From contig CBCSLL010000171.1 of NCBI GenBank assembly GCA_965140935.1, positions 87,492 to 144,993 of the forward strand: a DNA stretch of 57,502 nucleotides. Reading direction: 5' to 3'. A program made the translations under genes and the position numbers. Below are positions 3,562 to 55,354 of this stretch, piece after piece. The notes below the pieces were generated by a model. It had not been told where the DNA came from. It saw only the letters and a program-made list of their open reading frames with translations, and ran no database searches. How positions within the stretch are numbered: the stretch's first letter is position 1; each line of letters begins with the position of its first letter. This DNA comes from Rotaria magnacalcarata. Lineage: Eukaryota.

Positions 3562-5590
3562 GATTGAATACATGTCGATTGATTGACTGAAATTGATTTT
3601 CAACACTATTCACATATTCTTTTTTTTTCTACCATTCATATTATTTTAGATAAATCACGAACTGATGACTACGATAGATAATAGACAGTAAGTGTAAAAG
3701 ATGCGGCAAACAAAGGTTTATCTTAGCAAAACATTTTTCTAGAATTTTAGCGGTTGATCGATCTGCAAAAAAATCTTCTATGAACAAGTCGAAACAACGG
3801 ACAGCATCGAGCGACGTAAGATAAAATAAATGAAAACATTTTCTCGTCATAGATCGCTGACTGCTCTAGAATACATCTGTAAGTATTCCTGAGAATTCTT
3901 GTGCGGTAACAATGATGTATCTTGGACCACAAATGGTAAAATCCAATGGTCCTTACAAGTTTAAAATTCATGCTGATGAAATTTTAATCCTACAATCTCA
4001 CACTACGACTGGCACTAAATCGATTTTCAAAGGATGTCTAAAGCCCAATGGTAGAAACGCATTTATCGATATTCGTTAGCGATGATTATCAACCGTTTTC
4101 TAGATGAATTCACTTTCAAATCATATCGTTTGATTGATCGTCATCTTGCTATTACTATCTATATCAATGGGATCATTGATCAGCACATTTTTGTTTGCTG
4201 TGAAAAAGGCTTCGTTAACCAATCTCATTTTCAAACAAGAAAAAGTTCATGTCAACTTATATCGATTACCGGAGGAATACCATGCGAGACGTAAGACATT
4301 ATCGATCGACTCAATTTTTGTTCTCTGATACTTATGAATTTACATTAGTTGTCAGTCGCATGAATTGATAAAATTTTTCCCAAATGAACTGGAACAGAAT
4401 GATGCCAATCATATCAGACTTCCCAGTGCTCAATCAGTTTCTCGATCGGTGAGTTTCAAAGAGGAATTTTAATCAATAATAGCTGACTCATTCAAGTCAT
4501 CTACGATATCCACCAAAGATACGGCGAAAGAGCTAACGCTTACCGAGTTAGCTTCAAGCCCATTAACAAAGTCTAAACCAGTTAAAGTTAAAACGAAAGA
4601 TAATATCGAACAGACGCCATTACCAGATGCTACTTCGGCTAAATACAATCCGATCAAAGACTCAAGCAACACTGGAGTAATCACACCAACATTGAATACT
4701 ACCATATGACCATCATCATTTACTTAATTTAGGCATCGATAGACAATCAAGGACAGAAAAATGTCAACAAAGAAGTTCATCAACAAGTGAAAAACATAAT
4801 TTGATGAATAAAACGTGTTAATTGATCGATTGTTTCTAGGATAATCAATCGATTGGCAAAACGGAAGTATAGTCAATTTGTAATTCTTGATTTTGTTTGT
4901 CATATGCAGAGTCTCTTCAACTAGACATCTAAAGACGCAGCAACAGGCTCGAAGGAATCCGATCAAATTGTTAGCAAAATTATGAATGAAGACAGAAAAA
5001 GCAAGCATCTCTTTCCAGAGGAATTTTTAATATCGACTGATCAAAGATACGTTCGTTTGTTTTATTTTAGCAAATATTTCATTAGCAGCCAGTCGTAGAA
5101 TGGAGCAATTACTGAACAGCTATTTAAAATTGTTACTTCCACAGACGAAGTCGAATGGAACTGCGGAAAAGGATACAATGAAATCATCGACAAATAATTC
5201 AGACCCAAACAATACGACTGAATCGTTCACTTACTCCAACCCGACAGGTTGGTAGTCGTGTTATCAATCGATTGAAAAGAAATGGTTGTGCAACTATGAG
5301 AAAAAAGGAGTAATGCTGAATTAACGAGGTTCTATACAATAATACTGAACTATAAAAAAAGGTGCTCGATCCAACGGTACTGAGAGCAGAAAAAAATATT
5401 GTTTACCATATGATTATTATGAAATATTTTTTTTCAAGATTAGCACAAGACATACCCTTTTAAAATATACGTAGTTTAGTGCGCATTCGACAAAACTATC
5501 TCATCGCGTATTTATTTTCTTTTAAGTTGAGATACAATATCAAGATATAATAAATATGATAAATTACTATAAAATCATATTACTGAGCCT

Positions 5591-5671
5591 GGGTGTGGCT
5601 GTGACTGTTTGGGTGAGTACATTTTGGTTTCTATTGCCATATCAACCCATCCCCACACCCACACCACACCC
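5591..5671. repeat. Telomeric-repeat-like hairpin H1 (degenerate): G-rich arm gggtgtggctgtgactgtttgggtgag and C-rich arm caacccatccccacacccacaccacaccc.
   Basis: Inverted G/T-rich then C/A-rich arms read directly; complementarity is imperfect. Confidence 0.5.
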
Positions 5672-9071: not shown

Positions 9072-9118
9072 AGGGTGTGGGTGTAGGTATTGCAATGACC
9101 CTGCACACCCACACCCTC
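9072..9118. repeat. Telomeric-repeat hairpin H2: agggtgtgggtgtagg - tattgcaatgac - cctgcacacccacaccctc.
   Basis: Near-perfect 17-19 nt inverted arms of (GGGTGT)n-type repeat with a 12-nt loop. Lies between the convergent 3' ends of genes B and D. Confidence 0.75.
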
Positions 9119-11292: not shown

Positions 11293-14055
11293 TGATTTTG
11301 CTGGACATAATCAAATTAAATAAATTAGTCGCAGTGTTTGACGAACAACAGAAATGACTACTTTTGAAGATTTTATTTCGATTGGTTCTTAGGCACTCTA
11401 ACACTTCTCATTGGCTTATCATGAGCAAAGTATGGCATATGAGGGTGTATGGATGTGAAAAGAAGAAAGGCATGGGTGGTAATGACTCCCTACGTCTGAA
11501 ATATTCTATGCCAGTGCCACCCTCGTATTTTTAACACTCATGCATTTAGTCGCCGAATTATAACGCGTACCGATGCTACATTCACTGGGTGAGAACATAG
11601 GCACCTGTGAAAAGCATACTGAAACTCACACTATGTGAAACATGTGATGATAACTATTTTGAAATACCAATACTATATGTTGAATGACGCGCATCAAAAG
11701 CCGCTAGATTTTACGAATATTTTCGTATGATGTAAATATTTTCATTCTAATAAGTTCAGTTCTATGTATTGATACAGATCTCTTATGAAACACGATCTCG
11801 AATCGATATTGAGGAGAAAATCAGTAATATGGGTTCTACTTCTTTGCATATGCTGTCTCTTTGATAAACAATCCTTCTACAATTTAGAACTATTCTCATT
11901 TATTCTGTCTTCTGATGAAATAACGAAATGAATTTGTTCAGCAGATAATGACTTACGTAACCAATATAGTCTCTGCGTCTTACTAAACTATTCTTTTCTA
12001 TCCTACTGTATTTGATGCACGCATTATGCATGGCATTCTCTCTTATCTATTTTTTTCATTTGAGAAAATTCTCATTAGTCAACATTGCTTTGTAGTCAAC
12101 ATTTGGGTTTTTCGTACTCCATATCGCGTATACATTGCGTACACAAATTGGATCCAATCAATATAGAAATCAACAGCAAATCATAATCTGCTTATATTTC
12201 ATTGAATAACTGTTTATTCATGAAAACAGAATACGCTCATCGCTAGTGCAGCAGTGACGTTTTTGAGAAAATATACAATATTTTAGCAGTTAGTTTTCAC
12301 TAAATAAGGAAAATTCAAATGTATACGCTACTTGATTTATGACTTGTAAGTTGAACTGGATTAGTGTATAATGATTGTTTTAATTAAGGTTCACGGTATG
12401 CTCTTTATAATAAATCTGAAACAAAAGTATTATGTTGCTAACATTTATTAGACAGTCACACGAAGTTGTGTAAACCGTCTGGTATATATGCACGTTTTTT
12501 TTTTGTTTTCTATTAATGAACCTTACTACCATTACGGGCCTCAAGCTATATTTACCGATTCATCCTTTTAAATGCAAGTATTTCACTAAAGCTGATAAAA
12601 ATTAAAAAAGAACAATAGCAGATATAAGAACATGATACAAAAAGAAGAGGATGTATGTGATACACACTAAAGAAAAATTTGTCGCAAGATATAATGTCGC
12701 AGGCTCAATGACAAGAAATGTGTCATATTTAGAATGTATCGTACAGAAACGGAGAACTCACCCGATTACACTGCGTCACCTGGCCCCGGATGTGACGATT
12801 TTAGATAGAAGAGATGCCTGTGCTGATGGTATTACACTTTATTTAACTCTTCAAATCATAGATCGCATCGATTACATATAAAGCACACGCTTAAATACTC
12901 AACCATTTGAGAGAACGAAGAAGAAGGATAGATAAAGACAAATATAAAGGACAGAAAGATAGAGGCAATAGGTGTGATGAGAATAAATGGCACCATAAGA
13001 CCAAATATTATGTATAGGTTACACTCGAACGAGAGTATTACACTTCCGGATGGAATTTGGACGCTCTCCGCATATAACGTTACACCGGAGCACGACGAAA
13101 TGGTTTTAGATTGGACGAGCTGCTCACCACGGTCAGATCCTGGTTAAGATTTTCGGGTCGGCTCTAACAGAAAAACTGGAAATTTCCCACGTAAGTAATT
13201 TTAGCATCAGATTCGAGTATTTCCTGTCCGGATTCACCTGTAGAAACGTCAAGTAAATAGAGGGGTCTGTGCCAAAAATACCGATTTTAATTCTATGTAA
13301 ATATTTTGTAAAAACAATATATCTTGTGCGAATTCGCTTTTAGATCTGTGCTGATTCACTTCTTGGTTTTGCTGGATGCATAATTTTATTCTCTATCGAA
13401 TGATATGATATTTTGAATGGGGTCGTCGAGCAAAAATTGGGTGTTTCGGACGAAATATTGCCTGAGACCCATGTTTTTGGGTGGGAATCTGACTGTGGGT
13501 GTAAACGTAATTCGAGAGAAAAACATGTCGAAAATAAAGCTACCAGTCTATTACGGAGTGAAAATAGATTCAAATTGTTTCCGGGATCATCTATAATGAG
13601 TTGACATCCTCAGGTATAGTCGCACCCAGAATTACACCCCTGCCCTCACTGATATTGGCTCTAGTACTGAGGCTCCTATTATTCATTGATGTAGCGGAGA
13701 TGCGACATCATTTCGATGAAGAGACATGCAACAAAGTTTTATATAGTATGACGGCATCGAAATAAGCCAGCTGACAATTCAATAATCACAAGATATTTTT
13801 TCACATAGTGTTTCACGGGTTCTCTTAAGAAAATTTAGTATGTCGCTGTTTTTATTCTATCATCCCATCATGCCGTCACCTAGTGATTGAAAATAAATAA
13901 TCAAAGCAGTTCTTTAAAAAATACCTACTTTTCGAAGTAGGATGAAGAACGCCTACGCAAAACGAAATTCACAACTTTTTCTATAGAATTTCTGACGAAG
14001 TGAAGCATACATTGGTTTAGACTTTAGGGGTGGTCATTTAGTGTTACTTTACTAA

Positions 14056-14180
14056 ATAAAGATAAATGAATCGTTTATCTTTAGAAAATAAACATAAATG
14101 AATCGTTTATCTTTAGAAAATAAAGATAAATGATTCATTTATCTTTAAAAACTAGAGATAAAGGAATTATTTATCTTTAG
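14056..14180. repeat. Tandem repeat, ~3.5 copies of a ~36-bp unit that is itself palindromic (aaagataaatgaatcgtttatctttagaaaataaac).
   Basis: Read directly. Confidence 0.75.
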
Positions 14181-14439
14181 TTTTTAAAGCAAAAAACAAA
14201 GGAATAAATGATTTCTGTTTTCAAGCGATAATCGAGTCGAAATTATTCTAGAATTGTAGAACTCGTGTTCGGGAATATTCTTATCATTGGATCGATGTCC
14301 TTTGACTGAAAACAGGGACCTCTGAAGTGAAATCAACTTGTGCTGTTTTACTGGTATTTATGAGATTTTAGTTGGAAAAATGGAGATTAAATTAAAACTA
14401 ATAGCATATTCTGAATCAGCAATAAAAACGAAGCAAACC

Positions 14440-14733: not shown

Positions 14734-14813
14734 GGGTGTGGGTGTGGGTGTGAACTCTGCATATGGATGTTCGTTTATCCAACCGTCACAACCATACTGA
14801 CACCCACACCCGC
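14734..14813. repeat. Telomeric-repeat hairpin H3: (gggtgt)3g ... cacccacacccgc. It abuts the right end of a foldback element.
   Basis: tttgggtgtgggtgtgggtgtg at 14731-14752 is complementary to cacccacacccgc at 14801-14813. Confidence 0.65.
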
Positions 14814-24640: not shown

Positions 24641-25127
24641 ATCTGCTGTTTTCGGAAATTTGTATCGAGATTTCTTCTATTTTTTCTCTACAAGAAATGC
24701 GCCTATTATGTAATGCTTTACCTATTCATTGCCACAATGAACATTGGCTATCGGAAAGGAAGTAGTAGAGGCTTTTACATTCCGACTTTAGGCCATCACA
24801 TGGTTTTCTTTGAAAATTCTTCGAGTGAGAAATCAAACGTCAACATGGAAGTGACTAGCCGTGAATGGTGCTCCGAAAGAGCTCTGACAAAAAACTAGAT
24901 GCTTATCTATATAAATCATCACAGTTATGTTTCACATTGTGCAGTACCCTATAGAAAACTTACATCAGGGATACCCGAAAGTGATGGTGACACAGTAGAA
25001 CACTCTTATAGAAGGTTTTAAGAAATATTCTTCTTTCATTTGATGATAGAGAAAATGAAACTCTATTTTTCTATGCTGCTTTGTTCCTATTCGACTGGTG
25101 CCATAATAAAAAGATTTCGATAGAAAT

Positions 25128-25668
25128 TGTTGTTGTTGAAAATTTAACTAACAATTGAAGCAGATTAAATTAGCTACGCTTCCATTTCAATTTTCAATCA
25201 GTTAGATGTTCGCTTGCCTATCTCCTATCTCTCCTTTATTTCCCAGAAAACATTGACTATATGAGATAAAAAAGAGGAATTTCCCTTCGTATGAAAAACA
25301 ATGATTTTTCGAGGTAGTCGCTGAGAATTTTACGCTTTTTTAAAAAGAATAAGTATGCAATTAGACTATGTGGTCTCATATAGATGGTAGGATTTTTCAT
25401 GCGGCATCATGTGATGTACTTTGCTTCTTTTAAATAGAAGATATCAGGTGATAAACATATGTAATGAAAACACATGAATTTATCTTGTACGAAAAAGATA
25501 TCGTTTTCAGACGGTCAAAAATTGGTTGCTGAAACTTCTAGAGCTTTTCACGTTGCACCTTACGGTACATTTTCATTTTTTAAATACAATATATTAGGCG
25601 ATTGACAGTTGAAACAGAAAACGAAGCAATTTAATCTGCTTCAAGTGTTAGTTAAATTTTCAACAACA
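25128..25668. repeat. Inverted repeat with ~45-bp arms (25128-25172 and 25618-25668) separated by ~445 bp. It lies just upstream of calmodulin-like exon 2, in the putative first intron or promoter region.
   Basis: gttgttgttgaaaatttaactaacaattgaagcagattaaatt matches the reverse complement of aatttaatctgcttcaagtgttagttaaattttcaacaacagc. Confidence 0.7.
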
Positions 25669-25766
25669 GCGATTCCTGTTGAAATTTTATTACTATGATA
25701 TCAGTCGAATAGAGATGAAACGGCATAGAAAAACTTTTGTGTACCCCTAAGTATTATTCATTCTAG

Positions 25767-27627
<1,861 letters not shown>

Positions 27628-36217: not shown

Positions 36218-37348
36218 TTTAACTTGAAAAGGACATATTCTTGTTCAGCGTGAAATGCTGAATCAGAATATATCATCAATAACTTTTTAGACACTAACCG
36301 TCGCCTGGTAGGGCCTCTACAGTGGAGTCTTCAGAAACCCTAAGTACCCCTACTTCCAAACTTTTCACAGGTTTTATTTGTCATGCTAGAATCAATTTTT
36401 TATGCCAATCGACTCGTCAGATCATTCTGCACAAAACTATGCGAGTAGATTTTCGAAATTTTTTTTCTTGGTTGAGAAAATCGGATTTTACCAAAAACCT
36501 ATGCTAAAACGAAAATCTCACTTTTCTGCTTTTCCTTGATTTTCGAGATATGAAACCCAAAAGATTGCCAAGTAGGTAATCAAGCATGGAGAATTCAATG
36601 GACATCCTCCTGCAAGCTTTATATGGTTCTCTAGGGTTTTTGGAGGCACTTAGCAAGGTTTTTGGGTGATTTTTCGCCAAATTTTGGGGTTCATAAGACA
36701 CTGAGTATTGTGGAAGCTTACAAGCCCACCAATTTCGGTACTTAGTGCCGTTTCTTGCAGATTTTGACGTAAAACTTTTAGTTCCAGTAAATAATTTCTA
36801 TTATGCCTCGAAAGTCACAGCATTCGAAATCGATCTCCTGTGCATTTCTACACAAGAGAACCATTGAAAGTGAGAACTGCAGTGGCTCATCCGAAGCAGG
36901 TATTGATTCAGAAGCAAACGACAGAAGCTTGGAGCGGTCGACACAATTCATATAAGAAATTACAAATACTGATCTGCCTGTTTTGTTTGAACTTTGCTAG
37001 GCGAAATGCCCACTTATATATCTGACTGTTTTACCGTAGATGACTTTGCGCAATTTTTCGTTTTAGCATAGGTTTTTGGTAAAATCCGATTTTCTCAACC
37101 AAGAAAAAAAATTTCGAAAATCTACTCGCATAGTTTTGTGCAGAATGATCTGACAAGTCGATTGGCATAAAAAATTGATTCTAGCATGACAAATAAAACC
37201 TGTGAAAAGTTTGGAAGTAGGGGTACTTAGGGTTTCTGAAGACTCCACTGTAGAGGCCCTACCAGGCGACGGTTAGTGTCTAAAAAGTTATTGATGATAT
37301 ATTCTGATTCAGCATTTCACGCTGAACAAGAATATGTCCTTTTCAACT
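36218..37348. mobile_element. Second large foldback element from a different sequence family. Arms are ~36218-36515 and ~37052-37348 (~300 bp, near-identical) with a ~535-bp spacer.
   Basis: ORFs 36322..36507(+) and 37063..37248(-) encode the same 61-aa peptide, which is diagnostic of an inverted duplication. The arms were checked by eye (ttgaaaaggacatattcttgttcagcgtgaaatgctg... versus its reverse complement at 37290-37348). Confidence 0.85.
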
Positions 37349-38628
37349 TAAGAGTCATTCTCTGTAGGAATTACGGCCTTTGAGAAGTGACCCACCTCAG
37401 AATTGTCTGAAAATTTCAGGGTATAGGTAAAAAGTTGTCCTGATTCTAAAAATATAATTTTTTTAAAGTTCTCATTGGGAAAAAGAAGTTATGGCTACTG
37501 GACCATGACCAAAATGAGTATATATCGATTTTTTAAAAATTGTCTAAAAATATTTTTGATATGTCAGAAATGTAGAGCTCATCAAGCTGATCATTTTTAC
37601 ATTGGCCATATCTTTCTAAACCTTAAGCTTCAAGCGCTAATTCGTCTCTAAAGTAGACAAATATTAAGAATTTCACCTGTTTCCTCATATTTCACCATTA
37701 AAACTCAGCATAAGTACTACTTATAATACATGGATTTAATCATCTGACTTCCAACTACACGCTCATGTGTTTACCGACTCTTCAAGCCTCTCCCTTCGAA
37801 AGCTATACCGCAAAGAACATCGAAAAAGTGGAAAATAACGCACAACCTTACACTTGTTTCGGATTTTTCTAAAAAGGTATCAAATCAATGACTTTCAATC
37901 TAACAGAATCTTGTTCAGAATAGTCAACTCTACCGGAAACTGTGATTTAACAATTTAGAAAAAAGCGTCAAAAAAAAGTTCCTTTTAATATGGTTAGATC
38001 ACAATATCCAGAAATATCGCTAAAATATTTTGTAAACCGTCGCATTAATTTTTACAAGAGTGGAATAAAAAACCATGTATCACAGATTGTAGCGCGCCAT
38101 TTCTACTATTAGGATCTGTGTTTAGTTTTGTTTCCACTGTTACTTTATGTGGAAAATGTTTGGTAACTTGGAAAAAAAGTGGTACAAAAATAGACAAATG
38201 AGCAAATAATTCACCTTTTACATAGTGAATAAATATTTTCAGTCCAAAACTGATAACGGATTCAGAATCTACGTAGAAATCTACGTGCATAGCGTTAGTC
38301 TCTTACTCACCCACACGTACAACTACCTAACAACTGATAGATGAAAGTGCTTTACACAAGAATATATTTACATGTGTCAAATTTTGTTTTGTGTTCTGTA
38401 CAATGTTTCTTTGCTCCTAGAAGTGTTGTAATGTCCACTGACGGTAGAATGGTCATGTGGGAGAGGAGAAGAAAAAGAGAAAATAGCCAAGTTTCTTGTC
38501 GTTCTGCACACAATTTGACGTTAGAAAGAAAAATGTGTTTTTCTTGAAAATCGTTTGTTTTTGAGGATAATATTATTCACTTTTCAAAATCTTTACAACT
38601 TCTGTTGTTAGTATAAATTATTTATAAT

Positions 38629-42109: not shown

Positions 42110-42728
42110 TTGAATTCCGTAAAACAATCATCTCAACAAAGAAAACGATCATCAAAGAAATCGTCAGTTTTATTCTGCTCAGATTCACATTGTGTTTCAA
42201 CATTTGTTGATATCAAAGAACTTGAACAACATTTAAAAACCAACCAACATGGATATTTCCAAGACAATGCTGACTTGCAAAGTCTTCCAATCATAGAAAA
42301 AGCAAAGATTTATTTTATTGGTCATCTTAAAGGTGGTTCCAATATCGCTAATTCAACTCCACACTCTACTACATCGTCTTCTACCTCATCGGTAACGAAA
42401 AAGTCTCGCCCTAATTCGATTTGGATTGCTCAAGGTTGGGCACAACAAAAACGCTCACTAAGAGTTTCGTTATCGATACAACAAACCAAATTCTTAGACC
42501 AATTGTATGAACGTGGCGAAGAATCAAAAAAAAGTCTACCCAGCTGCAGCAGCAGATTTAATGCGAACAGAAATTGATAAAAAGAATAATAAACTATTTC
42601 GTCCTTATCAATACTTGAATAAAAAACGAATTACAAATTATTTTTCGTCGAAAAAAAGAAAATCACTTCAACGTTCATCAAGTGCGGTTGATGAAGTAAG
42701 TATAAGTTTCACCAGCAAGCTGCTTTAA
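42110..42728 (+). CDS. ORFs downstream of the 39734-41631 exon. They contain a C2H2-like zinc-finger-like motif (FCSDSHCVSTFVDIKELEQHLKTNQH) and a basic, Ser-rich tail. They may be separate exons or a separate gene, and there is a frame change between 42110..42577 and 42507..42728.
   Basis: Open frames only. The C-x4-C-x12-H-x5-H spacing fits a C2H2/U1-type zinc finger. The next feature downstream is a telomeric-repeat hairpin at 42790. Confidence 0.3.
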
Positions 42729-42789
42729 AAATGCTGTCTACTTTTTATTGGAGGATCATCACGATGATGAAGATGAAGAAGCTGCTCTT

Positions 42790-42878
42790 GAGGGTGTGGG
42801 TGTGGGTGTGACTAGATCGATACTCGCATTCCAGTCCCATATGCCACAAACCCACACTCATACCCACACCCACACCCC
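42790..42878. repeat. Telomeric-repeat hairpin H4: gagggtgtgggtgtgggtgtg - 48-bp core (actagatcgatactcgcattccagtcccatatgccacaaacccacac) - tcatacccacacccacacccc.
   Basis: Read directly. The internal core is shared with H6 at 48290-48366. Confidence 0.8.
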
Positions 42879-43262
42879 AAATCAAGGATTACTTTTGATT
42901 TTTTTGTTGTAGTAATCGGTTATTAGTTTTTCCCCTTACTCTTTTATTCGTTAAAAAACTTGAACAAAAATAGTCGAGCACGGCGAATCCGAATCTGACT
43001 TCAATTATATTATCACTAATTATTAACTTATTACTAGTTAGTAGTTCACAAATACTACTTCTACGAGAAAGAGCTGAGCGAGTCCTCAGACGAGCGTTAC
43101 TTGTATTTATTTGTTAAATGAAAAGAAATGAATTAAATAAAAGAATTTGTTTTATTTTCACAAAATATTTATCATTGAAATTTAAAAAAATTGTACTATT
43201 TTCGGATGATTTATTTTTTTAATTAAAATTTGTGTTATTTTTGCAAATTTTAGTAGTAAAAC

Positions 43263-43336
43263 AGGGTGTGGGTGTCAGGGTGAGGGAGTCTTAATGAGAG
43301 ATTTGCATCCACTCGACACCCACACCCACACCTCAG
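43263..43336. repeat. Telomeric-repeat hairpin H5: agggtgtgggtgtcagggtgaggg ... cgacacccacacccacacctc.
   Basis: Inverted (GGGTGT)n/(ACACCC)n arms with a ~30-nt spacer. Confidence 0.7.
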
Positions 43337-44735
43337 GAATCGAATAGTAATTGTTTTTTTATTAAAGGCATTTTTCATATCGAAATCATTATGTCTTTCC
43401 CGAAGACTCTTTACAATTTGACTTGACTGATCGAATTAAGAAAAGAGGAGAATGAAGGATCATTTTCAGTACGTCTACTCTCAACAGTTATTTCTCGTTA
43501 AAAACAAATTAGGTTGAAGTGAAAACTATATGAACAGATAGAGAAATGTTTTGCCTATCCTGGATATCAAAAACTAATTCAAACGGACGTTATAAATAAA
43601 CGCTGTGAGTTTTTTCCTAAAAGAATAAAACTCGTGGCTGAATCAGGGTCAGTCACTCTACATGTTGATGTAATATTAAGAATAATAAATTCTAATAGAT
43701 ATTTTGCTGTGATACAGATTCTCATGATAGGTCTTCTATATTATTATCTGTATCTTAAATCCAGCAGTATTAATTAAAATAGTTCATACCGATTATTTCA
43801 ATTTTATACATACATGAAAACATCTTGAAAGTTTGGTTTATCATCCTCATGAAAATTAGCTAAAAAGGCTTATCAGCGTAGCCCCTTTGGGGCTAAAATA
43901 TGGAACTCACATATACTGTAACTGCTAGTAGATGATTTAATACAGCCTTATGTAATGAAACATGTTTCGAAGTTTGGATGAATTGAAATGAAATAGTAAA
44001 AAGTTATTGGAAAGAAAGATTAATTTGCTAACTAAGAAAAGTCAAGGTTGCTAAGAAAACATCAAATTTTGTTTAAAAATCAATTTCGATGTCGTTGGAC
44101 ATTTATTTTTTCGGTTTTTTTCGATTTTTATAATCATCAATGAGTGGGTGTATGTAAGAGGAGGGAAGGAACTTGAAAACTGTGACTTAAAACTTACACT
44201 CACTACTTTCTTCAAAAACATATGAGAGTTCCACAAAATAAAAAACAAACAGCTTGATGTATTACTTTCTCTTCTGCTCATCACCATATAAATTTTATTT
44301 ATTTATTCGAATATGATTCAATGCTTCATTATAAGTCAATGTCTCTTTTTGAACGATCCCACCGACTTGGAACCATTAAGAAGCGACTATCAATCTATAC
44401 GGTCCACAAATTTCAAGTATGACTTGCTTGTTTTCTTCATGGCCATCGCTCTATCGATGAATGCTTTACTGTTGTTATGTACAGTCCTTCTCACAAGAGT
44501 GCTTGTTTAAATAAAATTAAAAAGAAACGAAAGAAAAAGGGAGGCCAAACAGACAGAAACGAAATGTAAAACGTTGCTATGCAGGAAAATATAAAAAATG
44601 ACTCCTTCAAAAAAGATGCCACGCAAACATTGTCAGTTGTAAAGAATTCTTTCCAACAGTAACAACACATCATTGGTTTCGCCTATTTTGCCTTGGTAAG
44701 TAAATCTTGTGCATGATGCGAAGTGAAACAGAAAC

Positions 44736-44770
44736 ATATATATATATATATATATATAAATGTATATATG
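44736..44770. repeat. (TA)n microsatellite.
   Basis: Read directly. Confidence 0.9.
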
Positions 44771-44893
44771 ACAGGACTTAATTTTATTCATTCTATTTCG
44801 AGTTTCGAATATAAAATGTTTTTACGGTGTGTGTTTATCACTCGAAAAGATTAAATGTATGTTCACATCGAATTGCATATGAATGTAGACTGG

Positions 44894-44973
44894 GTCTCGA
44901 TAGCTTAGTTGATTAAAACGTCTGGCTAGTTACCAGAGTGGATACTACCTGGGTTCGATTCCCAGTCGAGGTT
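44894..44973 (+). tRNA. tRNA-like pol III gene with atypical features: an 11-nt variable region, a D-stem mismatch and G18-A19 in the D-loop. The anticodon loop is CTAGTTA, so the anticodon would be AGT (Thr) by position. It may be a diverged tRNA, a pseudogene or a tRNA-derived element.
   Basis: Acceptor GTCTCGA pairs with TCGAGGT (5 Watson-Crick + 2 G-U pairs). Anticodon stem TCTGG/CCAGA. T-arm CTGGG-TTCGATT-CCCAG gives a GGTTCGATTCC box-B-like element. The gene is followed directly by the T-rich run tcgTTTTcTTTTc at 44974-44986, consistent with a pol III terminator. Confidence 0.45.
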
Positions 44974-44986
44974 CGTTTTCTTTTCT
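44974..44986 (+). terminator. Oligo-T pol III terminator after the tRNA-like gene.
   Basis: TTTT then TTTT within 13 nt immediately 3' of the acceptor stem. Confidence 0.4.
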
Positions 44987-45410
44987 TTGTGTTCGTTCTT
45001 TCGTGTGATAAACACACGCCGTAAAAAATCATCTTTTATTCGAAATTCGAAACAGAATGAAACCGAAATTATTTTCAATGTTATATACTTAACAACGAGA
45101 CCTAGCTGCTAATCTACCTCGTTATTTTTATTCCGCTTTATTTAAAATAATGTAACAACGGTTTCAATGAGACCCCATTTAGAAAGCACTTATCCACCAG
45201 AAATGGACGGGTTTCAGGGAAATGGCCTGTAAAATTTGGCGATTTCTTCGTCTTTACGAGAAACCAGCTTTTCTTTTTAAAAGCATACCTCTGTGGGACT
45301 ATGGATAAGGTTCAAAGTGAAAACATTTCCACTCACACCCTCTAGTCGTGAATGGCTTGTTTTCTTTTGAACCATTTCTAGACTTTGAATTTGGAGGATT
45401 TTTTCTCTAA

Positions 45411-45878
45411 ATGGGTTGTAACCATGGTAAGTTTGTCACAACAGCAGTCGTTGTCAACCAAAGCAGTGCATCTCCTGCCATCGATATCCAGCACAACGAA
45501 CCACCAGTCGTAACAGGTGAAACTCGTTTCACCACAACAGCTGATAGTACAATCCTTATCAACGATGAAAAGATTAACCTTGAATCGCATCAGTTAGTAT
45601 GGTTAGATGAAAAGACAAGCGAGCAGATTAGTGAAAATATAGTTACCATTGAAAGTCTACGTAAAATTGTCGATTACACGAAGTTATTTGATAATGTTGA
45701 AGAATGTCGGCAGTACCTTGAGAATTCGAAAGATCATAATGACATATTCTTAGTAACGTCTGGTCAGTCAGGAGAGAAGTTGATACCTGAAGTTCATCGT
45801 CTTCAAAATGTGTTGTTAATCTATGTTTATTGTCAAGATAAAGAATATCATGAACAATGGGCATCAAAATATCAAAAG
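45411..45878 (+). CDS. Gene C exon 1: N-terminal MGC (potential N-myristoylation/palmitoylation) motif, then the shared N-terminal alpha/beta domain (LVWLD...IFLVTSG...VLLIYVYC).
   Basis: ATG at 45411 (MGCNHGKFVTT...). Donor AAG|GTAAAAG at 45879 is phase 0. Homologous to exon 1 of gene B. Confidence 0.7.
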
Positions 45879-45943
45879 GTAAAAGAGTTGTGAGCTTTCT
45901 TACGAGAGGGTGACTAGATCTCTTATATTCTGCATGCACACAG

Positions 45944-47869
45944 GTCAAGAAAGTTCATGGGATACTTGATCAATTATTAATGGAGCTTAGAGAAGACGTT
46001 CAAAATTATTCGAAATCTGTAAGAGGTGGCGTATCTAACACCCCGATGAAATCACAAAAAAGCACAGACGACAGTTTCGCCTGGTGCACAAGATTTTGTA
46101 ATATTTTGGTTCATCTGCCCTTTCCTCAAACTTGTCACGATAGACTTGTAAATTTCTTGAAAAACTATTATAAGAACAACGAAGTAGAATTGAAATATGT
46201 AGAAGAATTTCACCGTGACTACACACCAAAGCAAGCAATCTGGTGGTATACACGTGAAACATTTATTTATCGCATGCTTAACGCTGCCCTACGTCAATGC
46301 GACATTAAAACCATCGTTCTATTTGGGTTTTTCATTCAAGATGTATATCATCAATTGAAAGAAGAACATAAAAAGTTCCTACTTTTATACCCAAAAGATT
46401 CGATCATAAAATGTTATCGTGGGCAAGTAATGTCGTATCAAGAACTCCGCCAACTAGACTTCCAAGATGGAGGACCAAAAACAATCGTGAACACCAGTTT
46501 ATTTTCAACATCAATAAATCGCGATGTACCGTTCCGTTTTCTGTCTAATGTAATCAATCTACAACAGTTGGAATATGTCATTTTTGAAATTGAAGTCGAT
46601 ACTCGTTTGCAAACTCGACCCTTTGCTGATATTTCACATTTGAGTGCTTGCTCAGACGAATCTGAAATATTATTTATGATCGGCGCATGGCTTCTTATCG
46701 AAAGAAATGGTGTTTCGTACTCGTATGAAGACAATAAGAAAATTTGGACTATTAAGTCCACCCTAACCAACGACTGGCAACTGAAATACGAGCAATATCT
46801 CGAAATGACGACACAAAAGGAACATTTACAAAAGTGTCTCCGTAGAATATCTTTGCACATTTATCATGCGACACCCAATGACGTAGAGGTGGCTTTCAAC
46901 GAACTACTTGATTTATATCCGTCTGAAAGATGGATTTTAGCACTGAAGAAAGAAAGTCTTGGTGATAATCAAAGCGAAATAAGCCATAACCGTTCAGCCG
47001 CTTTAGAATATTATCAAAAAGCATTAGAAATCTGGTCTGAATACGTTAACGATGATGAATTGAATGCCGATTATGATATTGTTCGTATCTATTGGAAAAT
47101 TGCCACAAATAATGCAGATTCCATAATGGCTATGAAGTACAGTGATTTAGCCATTGTGCATAGCCAACCGGCGTTCGCAAAAGTTAGCACGAATTACGAA
47201 CGATATAGGTTACATGGATGGATGGCTGTTATATATAAAGAAAAAGCAAACATTAGCACTGGGGACAGCGAGAAATCAGAAAATTTGCTAGCGACCATCA
47301 AATACACCGAATTACAACTAAACAATCTGATCGAGTTGCAATGTACCACAGCGGTTGGCAACTATGACAATCTCACTGCTCTTTGTTACATAGAGTTAGG
47401 TGCCCTTTATCAATCCGTATTGAAATATAACGAAGCAATAACAAACTATGGAAAGGCTCTGGAATTTGAGCTGGCGAAGCTAGACCCTGATTATGAGAGA
47501 ATCGATCAACTTACTAGGGAATTAGTTGAAATTTACAGTGAAAAGAAAAATGATTATAATGCCGCATTTAAGTATGAATCATTAAACCATGAGTATTTAT
47601 TAAAACAATACATGGCAAATCCAACAAAGGATTATCTTCGCGAAGCCAATAGGAACTATACACTAGCCTGTAGTTACGCTGCCTTAGCTACGATTTGTCG
47701 GAAAATGCAGCGATATGATTTAGCGGCTGAAAATTTAACCAAAACAATCGAATCATATGGGAACAGTTTGCACTATGATAGGTACGCATTAATGTCAGCC
47801 CACGAAGATGATTTGATGGAAATAAACAAATTGTTAGCATCATCGAAGTCTGCAGAACCAACATCATAA
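45944..47869 (+). CDS. Gene C exon 2: arginine-type ADP-ribosyltransferase domain with an intact R/STS/ExE triad, followed by TPR repeats.
   Basis: Acceptor cacacAG at 45942-43. Motifs read AIWWYTRETFIYRMLNAAL, CYRGQ, SLFSTSINRD, RPFADISHLS and SDESEILF. TPR-like helices run across the C-terminal 330 aa (…SAALEYYQKALEIWSEY…LGALYQSVLKYNEAITNYGKALEFE…). Stop at 47867-47869. Confidence 0.8.
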   Translation, partial: VKKVHGILDQLLMELREDVQNYSKSVRGGVSNTPMKSQKSTDDSFAWCTRFCNILVHLPFPQTCHDRLVNFLKNYYKNNEVELKYVEEFHRDYTPKQAIWWYTRETFIYRMLNAALRQCDIKTIVLFGFFIQDVYHQLKEEHKKFLLLYPKDSIIKCYRGQVMSYQELRQLDFQDGGPKTIVNTSLFSTSINRDVPFRFLSNVINLQQLEYVIFEIEVDTRLQTRPFADISHLSACSDESEILFMIGAWLLIERNGVSYSYEDNKKIWTIKSTLTNDWQLKYEQYLEMTTQKEHLQKCLRRISLHIYHATPNDVEVAFNELLDLYPSERWILALKKESLGDNQSEISHNRSAALEYYQKALEIWSEYVNDDELNADYDIVRIYWKIATNNADSIMAMKYSDLAIVHSQPAFAKVSTNYERYRLHGWMAVIYKEKANISTGDSEKSENLLATIKYTELQLNNLIELQCTTAVGNYDNLTALCYIELGALYQSVLKYNEAITNYGKALEFELAKLDPDYERIDQLTRELVEIYSEKKNDYNAAFKYESLNHEYLLKQYMANPTKDYLREANRNYTLACSYAALATICRKMQRYDLAAENLTKTIESYGNSLHYDRYALMSAHEDDLMEINKLLASSKSAEPTS

Positions 47870-48289
47870 ACGACGAAGACGGGGTCAATCTAAAACAGAC
47901 TAAGCCTCCCAGGTGAATGAATCCGACAACGGATCTTATCGAATTCTATTCCACGTCGTCTATAACGATTGAATAACGGCGTTATTGCGCCGCTATTGCG
48001 ATCGCACTGTTACCCCTTTTAGCGTTTATAAGTTCCAGTTCCAGCTAAAAGGGCTTCCAGAAATAGTTTTTTTCAAATTCCAATTTATTTCGAAAAAAGA
48101 ATTCGAATTAATCGAAAGCAAAACTATATTAGAATTTATTTTCCGAATTATTATTTTTACAGCAACATCGTTAATAAAATATTTATCTCATAAATGGGAC
48201 TAATTTGAGATTTGTGGCTGCTACAGGCGGCTCAGGCACATCGATATTATCAGAGTGCATCGAATTCAAAACGATTCTGCCGATTTTAA

Positions 48290-48366
48290 GGGTGTGGGTG
48301 TGACTAGATCGATACTCGCATTCCAGTCCCATATGCCACAAACCCACACCCACACCCACACCCATG
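48290..48366. repeat. Telomeric-repeat hairpin H6: a near-identical copy of H4 (same 48-bp core) with a different repeat number in the arms.
   Basis: agggtgtgggtgtg-actagatcgatactcgcattccagtcccatatgccacaaacccacac-ccacacccacacccatg. Confidence 0.8.
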
Positions 48367-48549
48367 TTTAGGATATATTTTATTTCCTATTAAGAACTTT
48401 TCTTGGTTCATAGGAAAATAAAATACGTTGGTCAGCGAATTACCAATCCAAACGAAATTACTGGAATTTTTCTATACTACCATCTTCTATACTAACCAAT
48501 ATTTTTCTTTTTTCTATAAACTTCTCTTTTGCTTTTTGCCAATCATGTT

Positions 48550-48677
48550 TTCGACATTTTCCTTTTCGCTATTTTCCTCTTCGCTATTTTCCTCTTTCAT
48601 TTTTTTCTTTCGACATTTTCCTCTTTCATTTTTTTCTTTCGACATTTTCCTCTTTAAAATTTTTTCGACATTTTCCA
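48550..48677. repeat. Tandem repeat, ~4 copies of a ~27-bp T/C-rich unit (tttcgacattttcctctttcattttttc).
   Basis: Read directly. It generates the spurious low-complexity ORF 48428..48832. Confidence 0.75.
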
Positions 48678-49127
48678 CCAAGATCTATGTAAGTATGAGT
48701 CCAACGACATTTGTTCATGGTCAAACTCTTGATGAGTTTCGAGAAAAACGAAAACAAATGCTAGAAAATAGGTGTACTACGACACATTGGAGTACAGAAT
48801 TGGTTTTATCACGTAAGGGGTTCTTTTTTTGATGAAACATAATCTTGATATAACTTTTATCTCAAATTCTTTTCAGTTGGCAATCATACTGACCTACCTA
48901 AATTATCATTGGATAAGTTCGATGTCTATCAAAAAGCTTTAATTTTTGGTACCAACGACGAGAATGATTTTTGTCTTCCATAATTATAAACTATATCTAA
49001 TAAAAATTCGGAATTTTTCAATATAAATTTTATAGCTCGTCAATAATTTTGATCGATTAATGATTTCAAACTCAAACTAGAATTGATTTAGTAGAAATGA
49101 AAGCACTAAGACCAATCATAGATCTTG

Positions 49128-49186
49128 ACGGTGTGGGTGTCGGATAGTGTGCCAACTGCTATTATTGTCCATCCCCACACCCGTCA
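49128..49186. repeat. Telomeric-repeat hairpin H7: gacggtgtgggtgtcgg ... ccatccccacacccgtc. It directly abuts a 150-bp direct repeat.
   Basis: The inverted arms include the gacgg/ccgtc termini. Confidence 0.65.
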
Positions 49187-49335
49187 AATAATAGCTTCAC
49201 TAATCGATTTATTTAATTCAAATTCCTGGAAAGGTTTACCTGAATTAACAAATGCAAATAGAAAATTTTGTCCTTATTCATGTTTTATTCATTGTTGTTC
49301 TTGCGCAACTATTTTAAAAGCTTTTATATTCTATT
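49186..49335. repeat. Direct repeat copy 1 (~150 bp, ~90% identical to 51718-51865). It begins right at the end of hairpin H7.
   Basis: gtcaaataatagcttcactaatcgatttattta...aaattttgtccttattcatgtt...tgcgcaactattttaaaagc versus caaataatagcttcactaatcgatttatttattta...aaattttgtccttattcatgtt...tgtgcaactgttttagaagc. Confidence 0.75.
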
Positions 49336-51465: not shown

Positions 51466-51717
51466 TGTTTTTTTTTGTAAGTTTTTCCTAAAAAGTCATC
51501 TTGTATTTACTTCATTAGATGAGATATTTCAATAAAGTCATATTTAAAGGTTATACATTCTTGACTATATATTCTCTTTTTAAGTATTTTCTCATTATCT
51601 ATTATCATAATGGTTCTAAATGGATATGGTTAACTGGTCATTATTCAAGAGCAAAACTTTATTGGTAAAAAAAGCAAGATGATTGAATTATTCAAAACAA
51701 ACAATAAAACATGTTCG

Positions 51718-51865
51718 TCAAATAATAGCTTCACTAATCGATTTATTTATTTATTTCAAATTCCTGGAAATGTTTACCCGTATTAACAAATGCAGATAGA
51801 AAATTTTGTCCTTATTCATGTTTCATTCATTGTTGCTCTTGTGCAACTGTTTTAGAAGCTTTGTA
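51718..51865. repeat. Direct repeat copy 2. The pair brackets the 4-exon gene at 50071-51465.
   Basis: See copy 1. Confidence 0.75.
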
Positions 51866-53683
51866 TGATCTTATAAAAGCGTAAAACTTTATATTTTGAT
51901 TTTATTTAATAAAAACAAATTCTTATTGCAATTTTAATGTTAATTCCATTTTTTTCTTATTAAGTAAAAATTCGAAGTTATAGTAAAAAACAAATAAGTT
52001 CTAAGTTGTGATTAAATATTTATAAAGAAAAATATTTTTTGCTAAGTTGCCTTATTTATTTATGCTTATAATTGATTTTGTTAATAATACTACTTTTAAG
52101 TTTGTCTCTTTTGTTCGAAAATTTCCATTGTTTTATAGTTTCAGTTTTTTTTTTGTTCGAAAAGTCGTGCTAAGATATAAAAAAAACATTGACTTTTTGC
52201 AGCCTGTTCTGTTCTACTTGGTCAATAGAGCAACACAGAGCATAGTATGCTGTTCAATTAAACCTTATCTTTATCGTAATTTTCAATCTTTTTCAAAACA
52301 ATCTTTTATGAAATTCACGTACATTTTTAAAGAAAGATATAGTGCACAACTTTGAAAGTTCGATTTTCGACTCTCTTTCTCTTTTCTGTTACAGAAAGTA
52401 ACCAATTATTACTTGGAAACTATTAACTCATGAAAAGAAAGATTTTGAAAACAAAAGGAGACCCTAGTAAATATGGGGAAAAGTTTTTTAGCAGTGTAGA
52501 AATAAATTAGAAGGATTTTTTCTCTGGTGATCAATTAATTTAGCTTTGCTTCGAGGAAATGTTTTTTCATCTTACGCATTTTTTTCTATCTATCGAGGTT
52601 AAAAATATATTAGTGAAGTCCACATTTTTGCTCCAAACGGGCTGCGCTAAAATTTCTTTTTCATTCTATGATAGCAGATTGGTTTATTTGAGTTTCATTT
52701 TAGATGATATTAAATGAAATAGAGTGCTGCAAATATCAGCTTTACTGGAGAGTTTCAATTGAGAAAGAGTATTTTTGAAAATTTATATGAAGTTGATTTT
52801 ATATGACATAAATCATCTACAATGTGATCCAAAACAAATTAAAAGAAAGTATCTATTAAGTTTTGATAATATTGGAAGTAACTTGTAATATTCAAAAGAA
52901 CATCAACAGATCACCGATAATTGTTTTTGAGTTATTATTTTCACAATAAATTTTGAAGTTCTCTCGTAATAAAATATTTAATAATTAATCAACAACAGAT
53001 AAATTTAAAGGATTTGAAGCCAAATGGCTGTTGGAATACCATGAATTTGATCATAATAAAATACAAAAGCACACATTTTATTTTGTTGATGTATCTTCAA
53101 CTTTTTTGACATTTTCTTATGAAGCTGAATTTTGAAAGACATGAAAATTAATATTGATAAGATAAACGTGAGGTGTTGTTTACGAGCACATTGTTTTAAT
53201 ACATAGAATCGATTTCGATGTAATAAAAGTAAATATTAGATGGTGTTAAGTCACTAGTAAATTACAGCTATTGGAAAACTAGTCAAATTCGATGTGAGTT
53301 TTATTTCGTATGTATATGAAAGTTTGGGACAGTGGATTATTTTATTTGTAATTGTGATAGATAACAAATATAAGGTAATGAAAAGAAGAAAGACAAATAT
53401 AATCTCAGTATGTTGAAAAACGAAGCAGAAAATGGAGAAGAATCATCTATCGGTGCCATTAGTTTTCACGGGTTGATTTTCTATGAATCGAGTTAAGTTG
53501 ATAATAAATGAGTTTCTACTCTATTCACTTCAACACTAATTTTAGATTGTGTTCTATTAAAAAATCTATACGCCACTGGTTTTCACAGAACTCGATCTAT
53601 GAACTCAGTACTTTTTTCGTGAGCTGACCCCAGTAAACAGTATTTTTTCAGATGGACTTAGTCTTCTCATTGAAGATGTGGGT

Positions 53684-53722
53684 GTCCATCTAATCCCTCT
53701 TCATACCCACACCCACACCCTG
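53684..53722. repeat. Telomeric-repeat hairpin H8: gatgtgggtgtccatc ... catacccacacccacaccctg.
   Basis: Short inverted GGGTGT/ACACCC arms. Confidence 0.55.
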
Positions 53723-54688
53723 TTTTTATTTTAAGATTAGTTAAATTTAATTCTAAATGATTAATAAATTTTTGTAATAGATCATTTGAAAGTTTTGTTT
53801 TAACATCAAAATACTTTTGTTGATGACGAACAACAAATAAACTGACAATATTCAATAGATAAATTTGAATGAAAATTATTATTTATTGGTGATTCACATT
53901 CAATTCAACGTTTTATTAATAGATATTGTTTATCGAAAAAAATTATATTGACTTATAGAATTTAAATTAATTAAATAATTTCTCGTCGTATCTCATCCTC
54001 GTCAGTACATAATTTTTGTTGTAGAAAACATATTTTTGAATTCAAAATGAAATGACTGATCTGTCTTATTTACTCGCTAGTTTTGAATTGACGATCACAC
54101 GAGAATATATATCTTTGAAAAATATGTCATAAAATAGATCAACCAGTATATTTATAGATAAATTTATGTTTATAATTTTACAGGAGAACAATATGCAGCA
54201 ATTCTACAAAGGATAAAACTAATGTGGTTTAATGGCTATTCATTGTATATCTCATACAGACAATGAAACAAAGAATATAAAGGTCTATTGGTAGATACGT
54301 TGACTAACAAAAATAGACAAATGTTTCATTTCATCTCATGAGCCATATGTGTATTCGTTCTATTTCAACAATCGATTCGATGCATTACTAAATACTGTTT
54401 CTAACTGAATAAAAATAGTTTATGTTTTCTCATGAATACACAATGCTTCGTAATTTTCTTTATACCAACTAGTAAAAAGACTAAGAAAATTCAAGCCTCA
54501 TAAGGTATCGGAAATTCAAAAGCACAGTAAGAAAATAGATTTCGTTGAATTATATACGATTCGATAGAGCTCGCGAAAGCACTGTCCGATCGGAATCTCA
54601 AATATTTGCACATTTACTGTGGCTATTTCTTCGTCATAATATTCTACCTTGATTCAGCATCAAATATTTGCTTGGCTGGCCAGCTCTT

Positions 54689-54755
54689 GAGGGTGTGGGT
54701 GTGTGGCTGTTGATGGTGCTGCAGCTCTGAATGACCACCCACACCCACACCCTCA
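54689..54755. repeat. Telomeric-repeat hairpin H9: cttgagggtgtgggtgtgtggctg ... ccacccacacccacaccctcaag.
   Basis: The 20+ nt inverted arms include the cttgaggg terminus, which is also present at H4. Confidence 0.75.
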
Positions 54756-55354
54756 AGATGACAATCAAATGTACAATTCGAATCAAAAATAAGATATAAA
54801 TTTTAAAAGACCATTCTATGTCGAATAGGTTTGCAGTTTTCAAATAATCATTATAGTACATTTCATTTTCTTCGGCATTATCTCAACAATCAATTTAAAC
54901 AGTTTTTAGGTATTTTTTCCATAAAACAAATTTTTTCATGTCTGACAATATATCATTCAATCGAATATAAAATAAATGAATTTTTTTGTCAAAAATACTT
55001 ATGAAGATAATAAGAATGAGCTCAATGATAAAGAGGTTTTTTATCGAATGATCGACTTCGTTTAGAATATAATTATTGTTTACCAGAAATATTTCACGCC
55101 TCTTTTATTAAATTAAAATCATCTAAAAATTTCATTTGAGTTCTAATATTTGAGTAATGAACCAGTCACGATCATTATCTTTTATCTTTAATTAAGATAT
55201 TTATTAGAATTATTATGTTCATTTAATACATATGAATAAATTATCTCTTATGTTTAGAATTTTTTTTACATTAAATATCTAGTCAAGTAAACAATATTAT
55301 ATCATTAATTATATTTGACTTCCATTTACAATTTTAGATAAATAAATAAAATGT

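Follow-up and report, generated by a model that had tools for sequence, protein, structure and literature searches.

The DNA analyzed here (the window) is a stretch of 57,502 nt from the bdelloid rotifer Rotaria magnacalcarata (assembly GCA_965140935.1, contig CBCSLL010000171.1, positions 87,492 to 144,993 of the forward strand). Its open reading frames (ORFs) encode ADP-ribosyltransferase-TPR (ART-TPR), PARP, VWA and F-box proteins, and one ART-TPR ORF of 629 aa is 100% identical to an R. magnacalcarata protein. Whichever standard genetic code is applied, ORFs are sparse. An alternative code was considered for the sparse ORFs and rejected, since the host is a eukaryote with introns. The sole structured RNA in the window that reaches its gathering score is a tRNA-Thr(AGT). 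Being a gene-poor region rich in ART-TPR genes, the window resembles a subtelomere. Bdelloid rotifers are textbook survivors of massive chromosome breakage, with many foreign genes and patchwork subtelomeres. Our subject is a class of short hairpins scattered across the window and, in particular, two of its members, H4 and H6, which carry the same internal core.

Nine such hairpins, about one per 6 kb, were found in the window, where 0.02 12-mer matches were expected. All share the general structure (GGGTGT)n - core - (ACACCC)n, with a G-rich arm (G-arm), a core of 20-55 nt and a C-rich arm (C-arm). They are 44-86 nt long, and their arms span 12-20 nt. The individual hairpins are listed below, where z refers to the folding of the single-stranded hairpin compared with shuffled sequences:

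5591-5671, unstranded, H1: degenerate arms GGGTGTGGCTGTG ... CCCCACACCCACACCACACCC, unique core; z = -1.9
9073-9116, unstranded, H2: 44 nt in total, (GGGTGT)2 - 20-nt core - (ACACCC)2; z = -4.5
14734-14811, unstranded, H3: (GGGTGT)3 - 48-nt core - (ACACCC)2; z = -3.2
42786-42886, unstranded, H4 with its outer motif: TCTTGA 42786-42791, G-arm 42792-42810, core 42811-42857, C-arm to 42878; z = -5.5
43264-43333, unstranded, H5: unique core, 386 bp to the right of H4; z = -3.3
48290-48364, unstranded, H6: G-arm 48290-48302, core 48303-48349, C-arm to 48364; z = -3.6
49123-49187, unstranded, H7: TCTTGA-C-GGTGTGGGTGT ... CCCCACACCC-G-TCAA, hairpin at 49129
53670-53720, unstranded, H8: TTGA-AGATGTGGGTGT - core - (ACACCC)2, hairpin at 53676
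54685-54758, unstranded, H9: TCTTGA(GGGTGT)2G - core - C(ACACCC)2TCAAGA, hairpin at 54691, the most symmetric hairpin with perfect arms of 19 nt; z = -4.9

The arms comprise 2-3 units each in the window and range from 2 to more than 15 units across all sources. Given that TGTGGG is the bdelloid telomere repeat (PMC7943196, PMC13564844, PMC8494291), the (GGGTGT)n/(ACACCC)n arms show that the hairpins are made of the host's own telomere repeat. All nine lie outside annotated genes, several of them 136-417 nt 3' of annotated gene ends, and H2 separates the ART-TPR B ORF from a convergent ORF on the minus strand. The blocks delimited by hairpins contain roughly one gene each: H1 and H2 enclose ART-TPR B, H5 and H6 the tRNA-Thr together with ART-TPR C, H6 and H7 a gene of 74 aa, and H7 and H8 a PARP-like gene. 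Some hairpins are paired at distances of 0.4-1 kb, namely H4/H5 (42878-43263), H6/H7 (48364-49128) and H8/H9 (53721-54690). The short stretches between them thus have a scar at either end, as though small capped pieces had been inserted.

The locus is present in seven R. magnacalcarata assemblies at 99.2-99.9% identity, and H4 to H9 were found with identical cores wherever the contigs reach, so these hairpins are real and fixed. Rotaria sp. Silwood1 and Silwood2 bear hairpins of this kind too, as do R. socialis (at least three in 23 kb) and, in a small form, Adineta vaga. A metagenome scan with the generic pattern yielded 56 loci, among them about 35 AT-rich contigs with hairpins of this type whose cores all differ. 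A tblastn search of these loci with rotifer proteins gave a single weak TPR match, which leaves the taxonomy of the contigs unproven. A gene-dense R. magnacalcarata locus contained only one degenerate hairpin, and a Didymodactylos locus contained none.

The 47-nt core ACTAGATCGATACTCGCATTCCAGTCCCATATGCCACAAACCCACAC occurs exactly twice in the window, at 42811-42857 in H4 and at 48303-48349 in H6, both on the forward strand and without mismatches; 100 shuffles produced no such match. Its unique part is the 36-nt sequence ACTAGATCGATACTCGCATTCCAGTCCCATATGCCA. An earlier note on this DNA had reported the same core in both hairpins and described it as identical over 48 bp; the identity holds, and the length is 47 nt. 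Each core is enclosed by a GGGTGT...ACACCC inverted repeat, and both hairpins stand in direct orientation, about 5.5 kb apart. As had been noticed before, they differ only in arm unit number and a short indel: H4 possesses one additional GGGTGT unit and a degenerate TCATAC unit in its C-arm. The C-arm of H6 comprises three or four ACACCC units depending on the assembly, thus the arm unit number is unstable. When the window was compared against itself by BLAST, the similarity extended from 42798 to 42872 and from 48290 to 48364 (75 nt, 97%) and ended within the telomeric arms. Smith-Waterman alignments of the 300-nt flanks, performed in all four pairings, revealed no significant likeness (p = 0.07-0.85). 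The flanks are therefore unrelated, as previously claimed, and the core does not belong to a longer shared segment reaching into them, which would have spoken against copying of a discrete element. An identical, non-telomeric core of 47 nt between unrelated flanks also excludes independent expansion of telomeric repeats in situ. Since H4 and H6 are found with identical cores in seven independent assemblies, they are not assembly artefacts. One of the two cores is a copy of the other, or both derive from a single source.

Further copies of this core were not detected beyond the two known sites in the loci compared, which amount to about 250 kb of other bdelloid DNA and not to a whole genome. 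Exact 27-mer scans of genomic and viral contig collections gave no match. A concatenated six-frame peptide query of the core against a collection of 5.8 billion proteins was uninformative, as it found nothing, including the ORFs of H4 and H6 themselves. Derivation of the H4 core from a lost ancestral exon or 3' untranslated region was rejected, as aligning the core locally with the Silwood contigs yielded p = 0.09-0.35 and best-match positions that were inconsistent. A MAFFT alignment in which the G-arm of H4 was matched with ancestral GATGATGA sequence is an aligner artefact.

Considering the class as a whole, the G-rich arm lies 5' in nine of nine window hairpins. A palindromic hairpin reads G-first on both strands, and the C-first class is essentially absent: in DNA that had not been selected for hairpins, 12 G-then-C pairs were found vs. 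one C-then-G pair. Nearly all telomeric blocks in the window are members of a G-arm-first pair. The cores are largely individual. Among the nine window hairpins and about 36 non-redundant others, sharing is limited to H4 and H6, and about 45 of 47 hairpins have a unique core. Nevertheless, the cores follow a compositional rule. Their left half contains more G than C in 24 of 36 cases (p = 0.002) and their right half more C than G in 31 of 36 (p = 2.5e-6). Such a flip from G-rich to C-rich would result from two G-strand extensions that lose regularity as they grow and meet in the center, possibly with some filler. The H3 core is an imperfect palindrome of degenerate repeats. We found no sign that the cores were templated from their flanks, as would be the signature of polymerase theta: the longest words shared within 400 nt on either side were no better than those of shuffles for all nine hairpins. 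H7 is an exception, with an inverted match of 9-10 nt alongside that was spotted by eye. The 7-mers GGTCATT and CATATGG, common to other cores, were within chance expectation. In 4 of 49 hairpins, which stem from different sources, the sequence CTTTACCC recurs at the inner edge of the C-arm, a hint that copying sometimes extended to the opposite side of the same template.

Comparators were available for H4, H7 and H8, and all three hairpins lie at a breakpoint of homology. Two further features are required here:

42706-42787, forward strand, remnant of the last coding exon of a C2H2 gene (P0114), where the homology to Silwood1 and Silwood2 ends (..GCTGCTC)
49182-49324, forward strand, 147-bp duplicated segment with a second copy at 51716-51862 (90.5% identity)

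In the case of H4, four orthologous contigs from Silwood1 and Silwood2 (84-89% nucleotide identity) align up to position 42787 (..GAAGAAGCTGCTC), 4 nt before the G-arm. The Silwood orthologues then run on for about 250 nt of acidic coding sequence, whereas the window continues with TTGA-GGGTGTGGGTGT... instead. To the right of H4, nothing in the window matches the Silwood contigs and the homology never resumes. H4 is absent from the orthologous site of both species. Thus H4 truncates the exon, is lineage-specific and does not represent a clean insertion. The truncated C2H2-domain gene P0114 (35585-42787) gave no Pfam match in its 585-aa ORF. In the Silwood2 contigs (L066, L068, L069 region), inverted repeats of about 1 kb lie on both sides of its orthologue; in R. 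magnacalcarata the last exon and the right-hand repeat are missing past H4. Judged from this arrangement, the gene may belong to a large transposon.

In the case of H7, the homology of the 147-bp duplicate begins exactly at the last base of the C-arm. The two 147-bp copies bracket the PARP-like gene as direct repeats, an arrangement reminiscent of a gene block whose insertion produced a long target duplication, or of a product of recombination around such a block. The same gene contains, in assemblies L001 (15531-16112) and L002 (15592-15841), an element with terminal inverted repeats (TIRs; ends GGAGGGGGGACACTTTGTACACAAAACGGCCC...) that is absent from the window (50934/50935); it is a polymorphic transposon insertion whose internal part includes assembly Ns.

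In the case of H8, the assemblies L002 and L005, which are 99.2-99.5% identical to the window before this point, diverge wholly after 53729, 9 nt past the hairpin, and remain different for at least 4 kb. L002 is probably the other haplotype of the individual of L001, from a neighboring accession. The distal sequences (L002 18620-22459, L005 16150-20287) differ entirely from the window and probably represent a heterozygous structural variant between haplotypes. Within the variant sequence, at about 22098-22215 of L002, there is a more degenerate hairpin that again starts with TCTTGA-AGGTGTGGGTGT.

Another common feature is the motif TCTTGA, or TCAAGA on the opposite side. TCTTGA stands directly 5' of the G-arm at the left of H4 and at both ends of H9 (as TCAAGA 3' of the C-arm). 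H7 shows TCTTGA plus an extra C at its left and GTCAA at its right, while H8 has TTGA two degenerate units before its G-arm. To the right of the H4 C-arm we found CAAA and TCAAG (42882-42886), and H6 lacks the motif on either side. In total, TCTTGA was present at 8 of 94 perfect arm ends compared to a background of 5e-4 (p = 6e-16), and TTGA at 11 of 94 (p = 5e-10). The hexamer was also found at hairpins of R. socialis and of many metagenome contigs, and TCAAGA in A. vaga as well. Alignment with the Silwood orthologues demonstrates that the ancestral sequence at H4 provides only ..TC, while TTGA is non-ancestral. CGTCAA at the right of H7 is ancestral, since it is present in the paralogue at 51716. 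Both ends would fit extension of a broken 3' end by a reverse transcriptase (RT), once that end has been aligned on a template 3'-AGAACU-CCCACA..-5'.

Two points from the literature are relevant for the interpretation. For A. vaga, transient neotelomeres at break sites that leave "scars" were inferred in a 2026 study (PMC13564844), and interstitial telomeric sequences (ITSs) are known to be head-to-head at fusions and to arise as short tracts at telomerase-repaired breaks (PMC6410037). The explanation we favor, with a rough probability of 0.55, is that the hairpins, as interstitial telomeric repeats arranged head to head, are scars of telomere-capped ends that were joined cap to cap, and that the core of H4 and H6 was copied locally. 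A chromosome break or a free DNA fragment would expose 3' ends. Telomerase or a related RT would extend each of them, often starting with TCTTGA or its suffix TTGA and continuing with (GGGTGT)n, which loses regularity distally. We infer the enzyme and a template of the form 5'-..(ACACCC)nUCAAGA-3'; the non-ancestral TTGA of H4 and the motif enrichment are observations. Two short caps, probably too short to protect the ends, would then be joined head to head, giving flank-(GGGTGT)n-core-(ACACCC)m-flank. Here the joining pathway is conjectural, while the orientation rule, the G-to-C flip of the cores and the position at junctions were observed. Repeated cycles would generate a mosaic with about one gene per hairpin-delimited block. 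After a break within one hairpin, the core of its neighbor 5.5 kb away might be copied by short-patch gene conversion or synthesis-dependent strand annealing, with the telomeric arms of 13-20 nt serving as homology and out-of-register priming within the repeats altering unit numbers. Such local copying would explain why the cores of H4 and H6 are identical and the arm unit number alone differs. Scars of this type would likewise account for the fact that the orientation is always G-first, that the hairpins sit at junctions and have unique cores, that target-site duplications are lacking and that the hairpins are enriched in a gene-poor compartment undergoing rearrangement. In themselves, the hairpins are probably functionless.

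Several points weigh against this explanation. The repeats are perfect at the flanks and degenerate at the center, which is the reverse of a normal telomere and requires an extra assumption, either that the center of the palindrome decays or that distal synthesis is irregular. In its left half, the H4/H6 core does not resemble telomere repeats, and a source of this core was found neither near the flanks nor in the Silwood contigs. Comparators exist for H4, H7 and H8 only and for none of H1-H3, H5, H6 and H9; the ART-TPR C relatives L008 and L009, tried as comparators for H6, showed no synteny outside the coding region. The H8 breakpoint lies 9 nt outside the hairpin and not at an arm, thus hairpins might cause breaks rather than record them. 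Both H7 arms carry the same odd C after TTGA, which two independent additions explain less well than copying of one arm from the other, or of both from a single hairpin-like template. The assignment of the metagenome contigs to bdelloids is drawn from repeat type and AT-richness alone. The enzyme and its template are hypothetical. In addition, no description of a rotifer or bdelloid telomerase RNA was found in the searchable literature, so that the origin of TCTTGA is hypothetical as well.

One might go further and speculate, more tentatively, about a dedicated cap-and-join repair of bdelloids, in which a template that exceeds the 6-nt repeat, approximately 5'-CUCUUUACCC(ACACCC)nUCAAGA-3', is copied by telomerase or an Athena-type RT onto both ends of a break and onto free fragments, and the pieces are concatenated head to head. 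If this were true, scars flanked by TCTTGA would mark each join of the subtelomeric mosaic, could mark where foreign DNA entered and would reveal the flanks of the telomerase RNA template.

The closest known kind are fusion-type ITSs such as human 2q13-2q14 (PMC6410037). Like the hairpins, these consist of the organism's own telomere repeat head to head, a G-strand block followed by a C-strand block with degenerate repeats, at the join of formerly separate DNA ends. The rotifer hairpins consist of the host's own repeat, have the G-block 5' of the C-block and, for H4, H7 and H8 (the last within 9 nt), lie at a junction of segments that were not ancestrally adjacent. However, they are tiny (2-3 units per arm here, up to about 15 elsewhere), occur about once per 6 kb, contain a non-repeat core of 20-55 nt as well as the TCTTGA hexamer, and join gene-sized blocks instead of chromosomes. 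Short ITSs at telomerase-repaired breaks of primates and rodents resemble them in comprising few exact hexamers, in lacking target-site duplications and in being lineage-specific (PMC6410037). Yet those are single one-directional tracts in otherwise continuous sequence, whereas the hairpins have inverted repeats at both ends and flanks that were not ancestrally continuous. The break-and-heal motifs of programmed DNA elimination in nematodes are likewise short motifs at telomere-healed break sites (PMC13060919, PMC11347171). The healed nematode ends stay chromosome ends and the motif resides in the target DNA, while the rotifer ends are rejoined and the H4 motif is part of the addition. A description of such hairpins was not found in the searchable literature, although key older bdelloid papers lie outside it and a prior mention is possible.

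Two alternatives are improbable to a similar degree. According to the first, a single event duplicated a hairpin scar when the 5.4-kb block 42878-48289 (H5, tRNA-Thr and ART-TPR C) integrated via the arms. For example, a telomere-capped fragment might have circularized head to head and recombined with a chromosomal scar, leaving the same hairpin as a direct repeat at either side of the insert, as with the site that is duplicated around an integrated plasmid. The direct orientation of H4 and H6 around one block suits this idea, as do the arm homology at hand, the restriction of differences to arm unit number and the tendency of hairpins to bound blocks in general. However, none of the seven assemblies offers an allele with one hairpin and without the insert, no circular intermediate is known, and the block holds a further hairpin, H5, with a different core.

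The second corresponds to the suggestion of the earlier note that the hairpin family is mobile. The hairpins would be non-autonomous elements, either miniature inverted-repeat transposable elements (MITEs) with TIRs of the form TCTTGA(GGGTGT)n, or hairpin RNAs that pair with healed G-rich ends through their 3' (ACACCC)nUCAAGA tail and are reverse-transcribed in trans by telomerase or an Athena-type enzyme; one master copy would then have given rise to H6 (or H4) as a new insertion. MITEs are indeed 50-100 bp long, bear TIRs, form hairpins and are dispersed between genes. The window hairpins have inverted arms of 12-20 nt, extended by TCTTGA/TCAAGA in H9, H7 and H4, and this conserved, non-telomeric outer hexamer occurs in several species. 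The odd base in both H7 arms, the identical H4 and H6 cores between unrelated flanks and the recurrence of CTTTACCC beside the C-arm would all be accommodated. Furthermore, Silwood1 has, relative to Silwood2, an insertion of 406 nt (L067 4727-5131). An imperfect duplication of about 20 nt lies around it, and it includes a small telomeric hairpin (4831-4872) together with another G-rich block and GGGGACTAAG repeats. However, target-site duplications, for which the earlier note had proposed to look, are lacking: 33 of 37 hairpins show a direct repeat of 0-1 nt at the palindrome boundary, the maximum is 3 nt, and no duplication of fixed length emerged. About 45 of 47 cores are unique, unlike the shared interiors of MITE or SINE (short interspersed nuclear element) families, and no additional copy of the H4/H6 core appeared in the loci compared. 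H4 is no clean insertion, H7 and H8 lie at breakpoints as well, and H6 is devoid of the TCTTGA/TCAAGA ends expected of a transposed unit. The claim of a mobile family was thus not borne out.

A related group is that of the Athena/Terminon elements, endonuclease-deficient Penelope-like elements of the same organisms and the same genomic compartment, in which (ACACCC)n pairs with G-rich ends, telomere-repeat caps are found at the 5' side and host genes are captured between repeat stretches (PMC6431247, PMC3846280). Such elements prime on G-overhangs with (ACACCC)n tails (PMC6431247), which favors the RNA-based form of mobility. Yet Athena repeats have one orientation and are accompanied by a hammerhead ribozyme and an RT ORF, whereas those of the hairpins are inverted and neither companion was found. 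A hammerhead ribozyme gave no match at E <= 5 in the window nor at E <= 1 in 20 hairpin-bearing loci, and ORFs of at least 100 aa contained no RT or transposase domain.

Less probable still is that the hairpins are functional elements with selected stems, H4 and H6 being recent duplicates. They might give rise to small RNAs that are complementary to telomeres or Athena tails, act as insulators through paired sites for a telomere-repeat-binding protein, or terminate transcription between genes. Conserved stems with variable loops, the length of 44-86 nt with z down to -5.5, the intergenic position shortly behind several genes and sub-threshold matches to many microRNA precursor models would suit such roles. 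However, these Rfam matches are far below the gathering scores and spread over many unrelated families, as for any G/C-rich hairpin; only tRNAs reached the gathering score in the window and the 20 hairpin-bearing loci. H4 is missing from the orthologous site of two other Rotaria species and destroys an exon in R. magnacalcarata; arm length is unconstrained, and the position at breakpoints is not predicted. For the first two of these reasons we rejected the hairpins as microRNA precursors. Introns or introners are dismissed as well, since the hairpins are intergenic and the GT..AG boundaries that can be drawn around several of them preserve no reading frame.

If the hairpins are scars, each join carries a mark at the sequence level, which makes it possible to count and date the joins and to compare their positions with synteny breaks and with genes gained by horizontal transfer, and the conserved TCTTGA offers a concrete handle for locating the telomerase RNA template. 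The hairpins are likely hotspots of further rearrangement and local gene conversion. We advise against annotating them as MITEs or microRNA genes.

Besides the telomeric hairpins, the window contains other repeats. The tRNA-Thr(AGT) gene (44894-44974) lies at the center of a palindrome of about 275 bp (44787-45061), whose arms (44787-44847 and 44999-45061) are 87-93% complementary. In the metagenome loci L019 (640-713) and L013 (399-471), tRNA genes are located 0.3-0.5 kb from hairpins. The tRNA within its palindrome may be a tRNA-carrying foldback or SINE-like unit, or a coincidence. Three long inverted-repeat pairs, at 26042-27129 (364 nt, 97.5%), 36219-37351 (297 nt, 99.3%) and 25066-25733 (135 nt, 81%), span about 0.7-1.1 kb each; they have no relation to the telomeric hairpins and probably represent TIR or foldback transposons. 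Finally, an AT-rich array at 14044-14194, 0.5 kb upstream of H3, consists of overlapping direct and inverted repeats with a unit of approximately TTTATCTTTAGAAAATAAAGATAAATGA.

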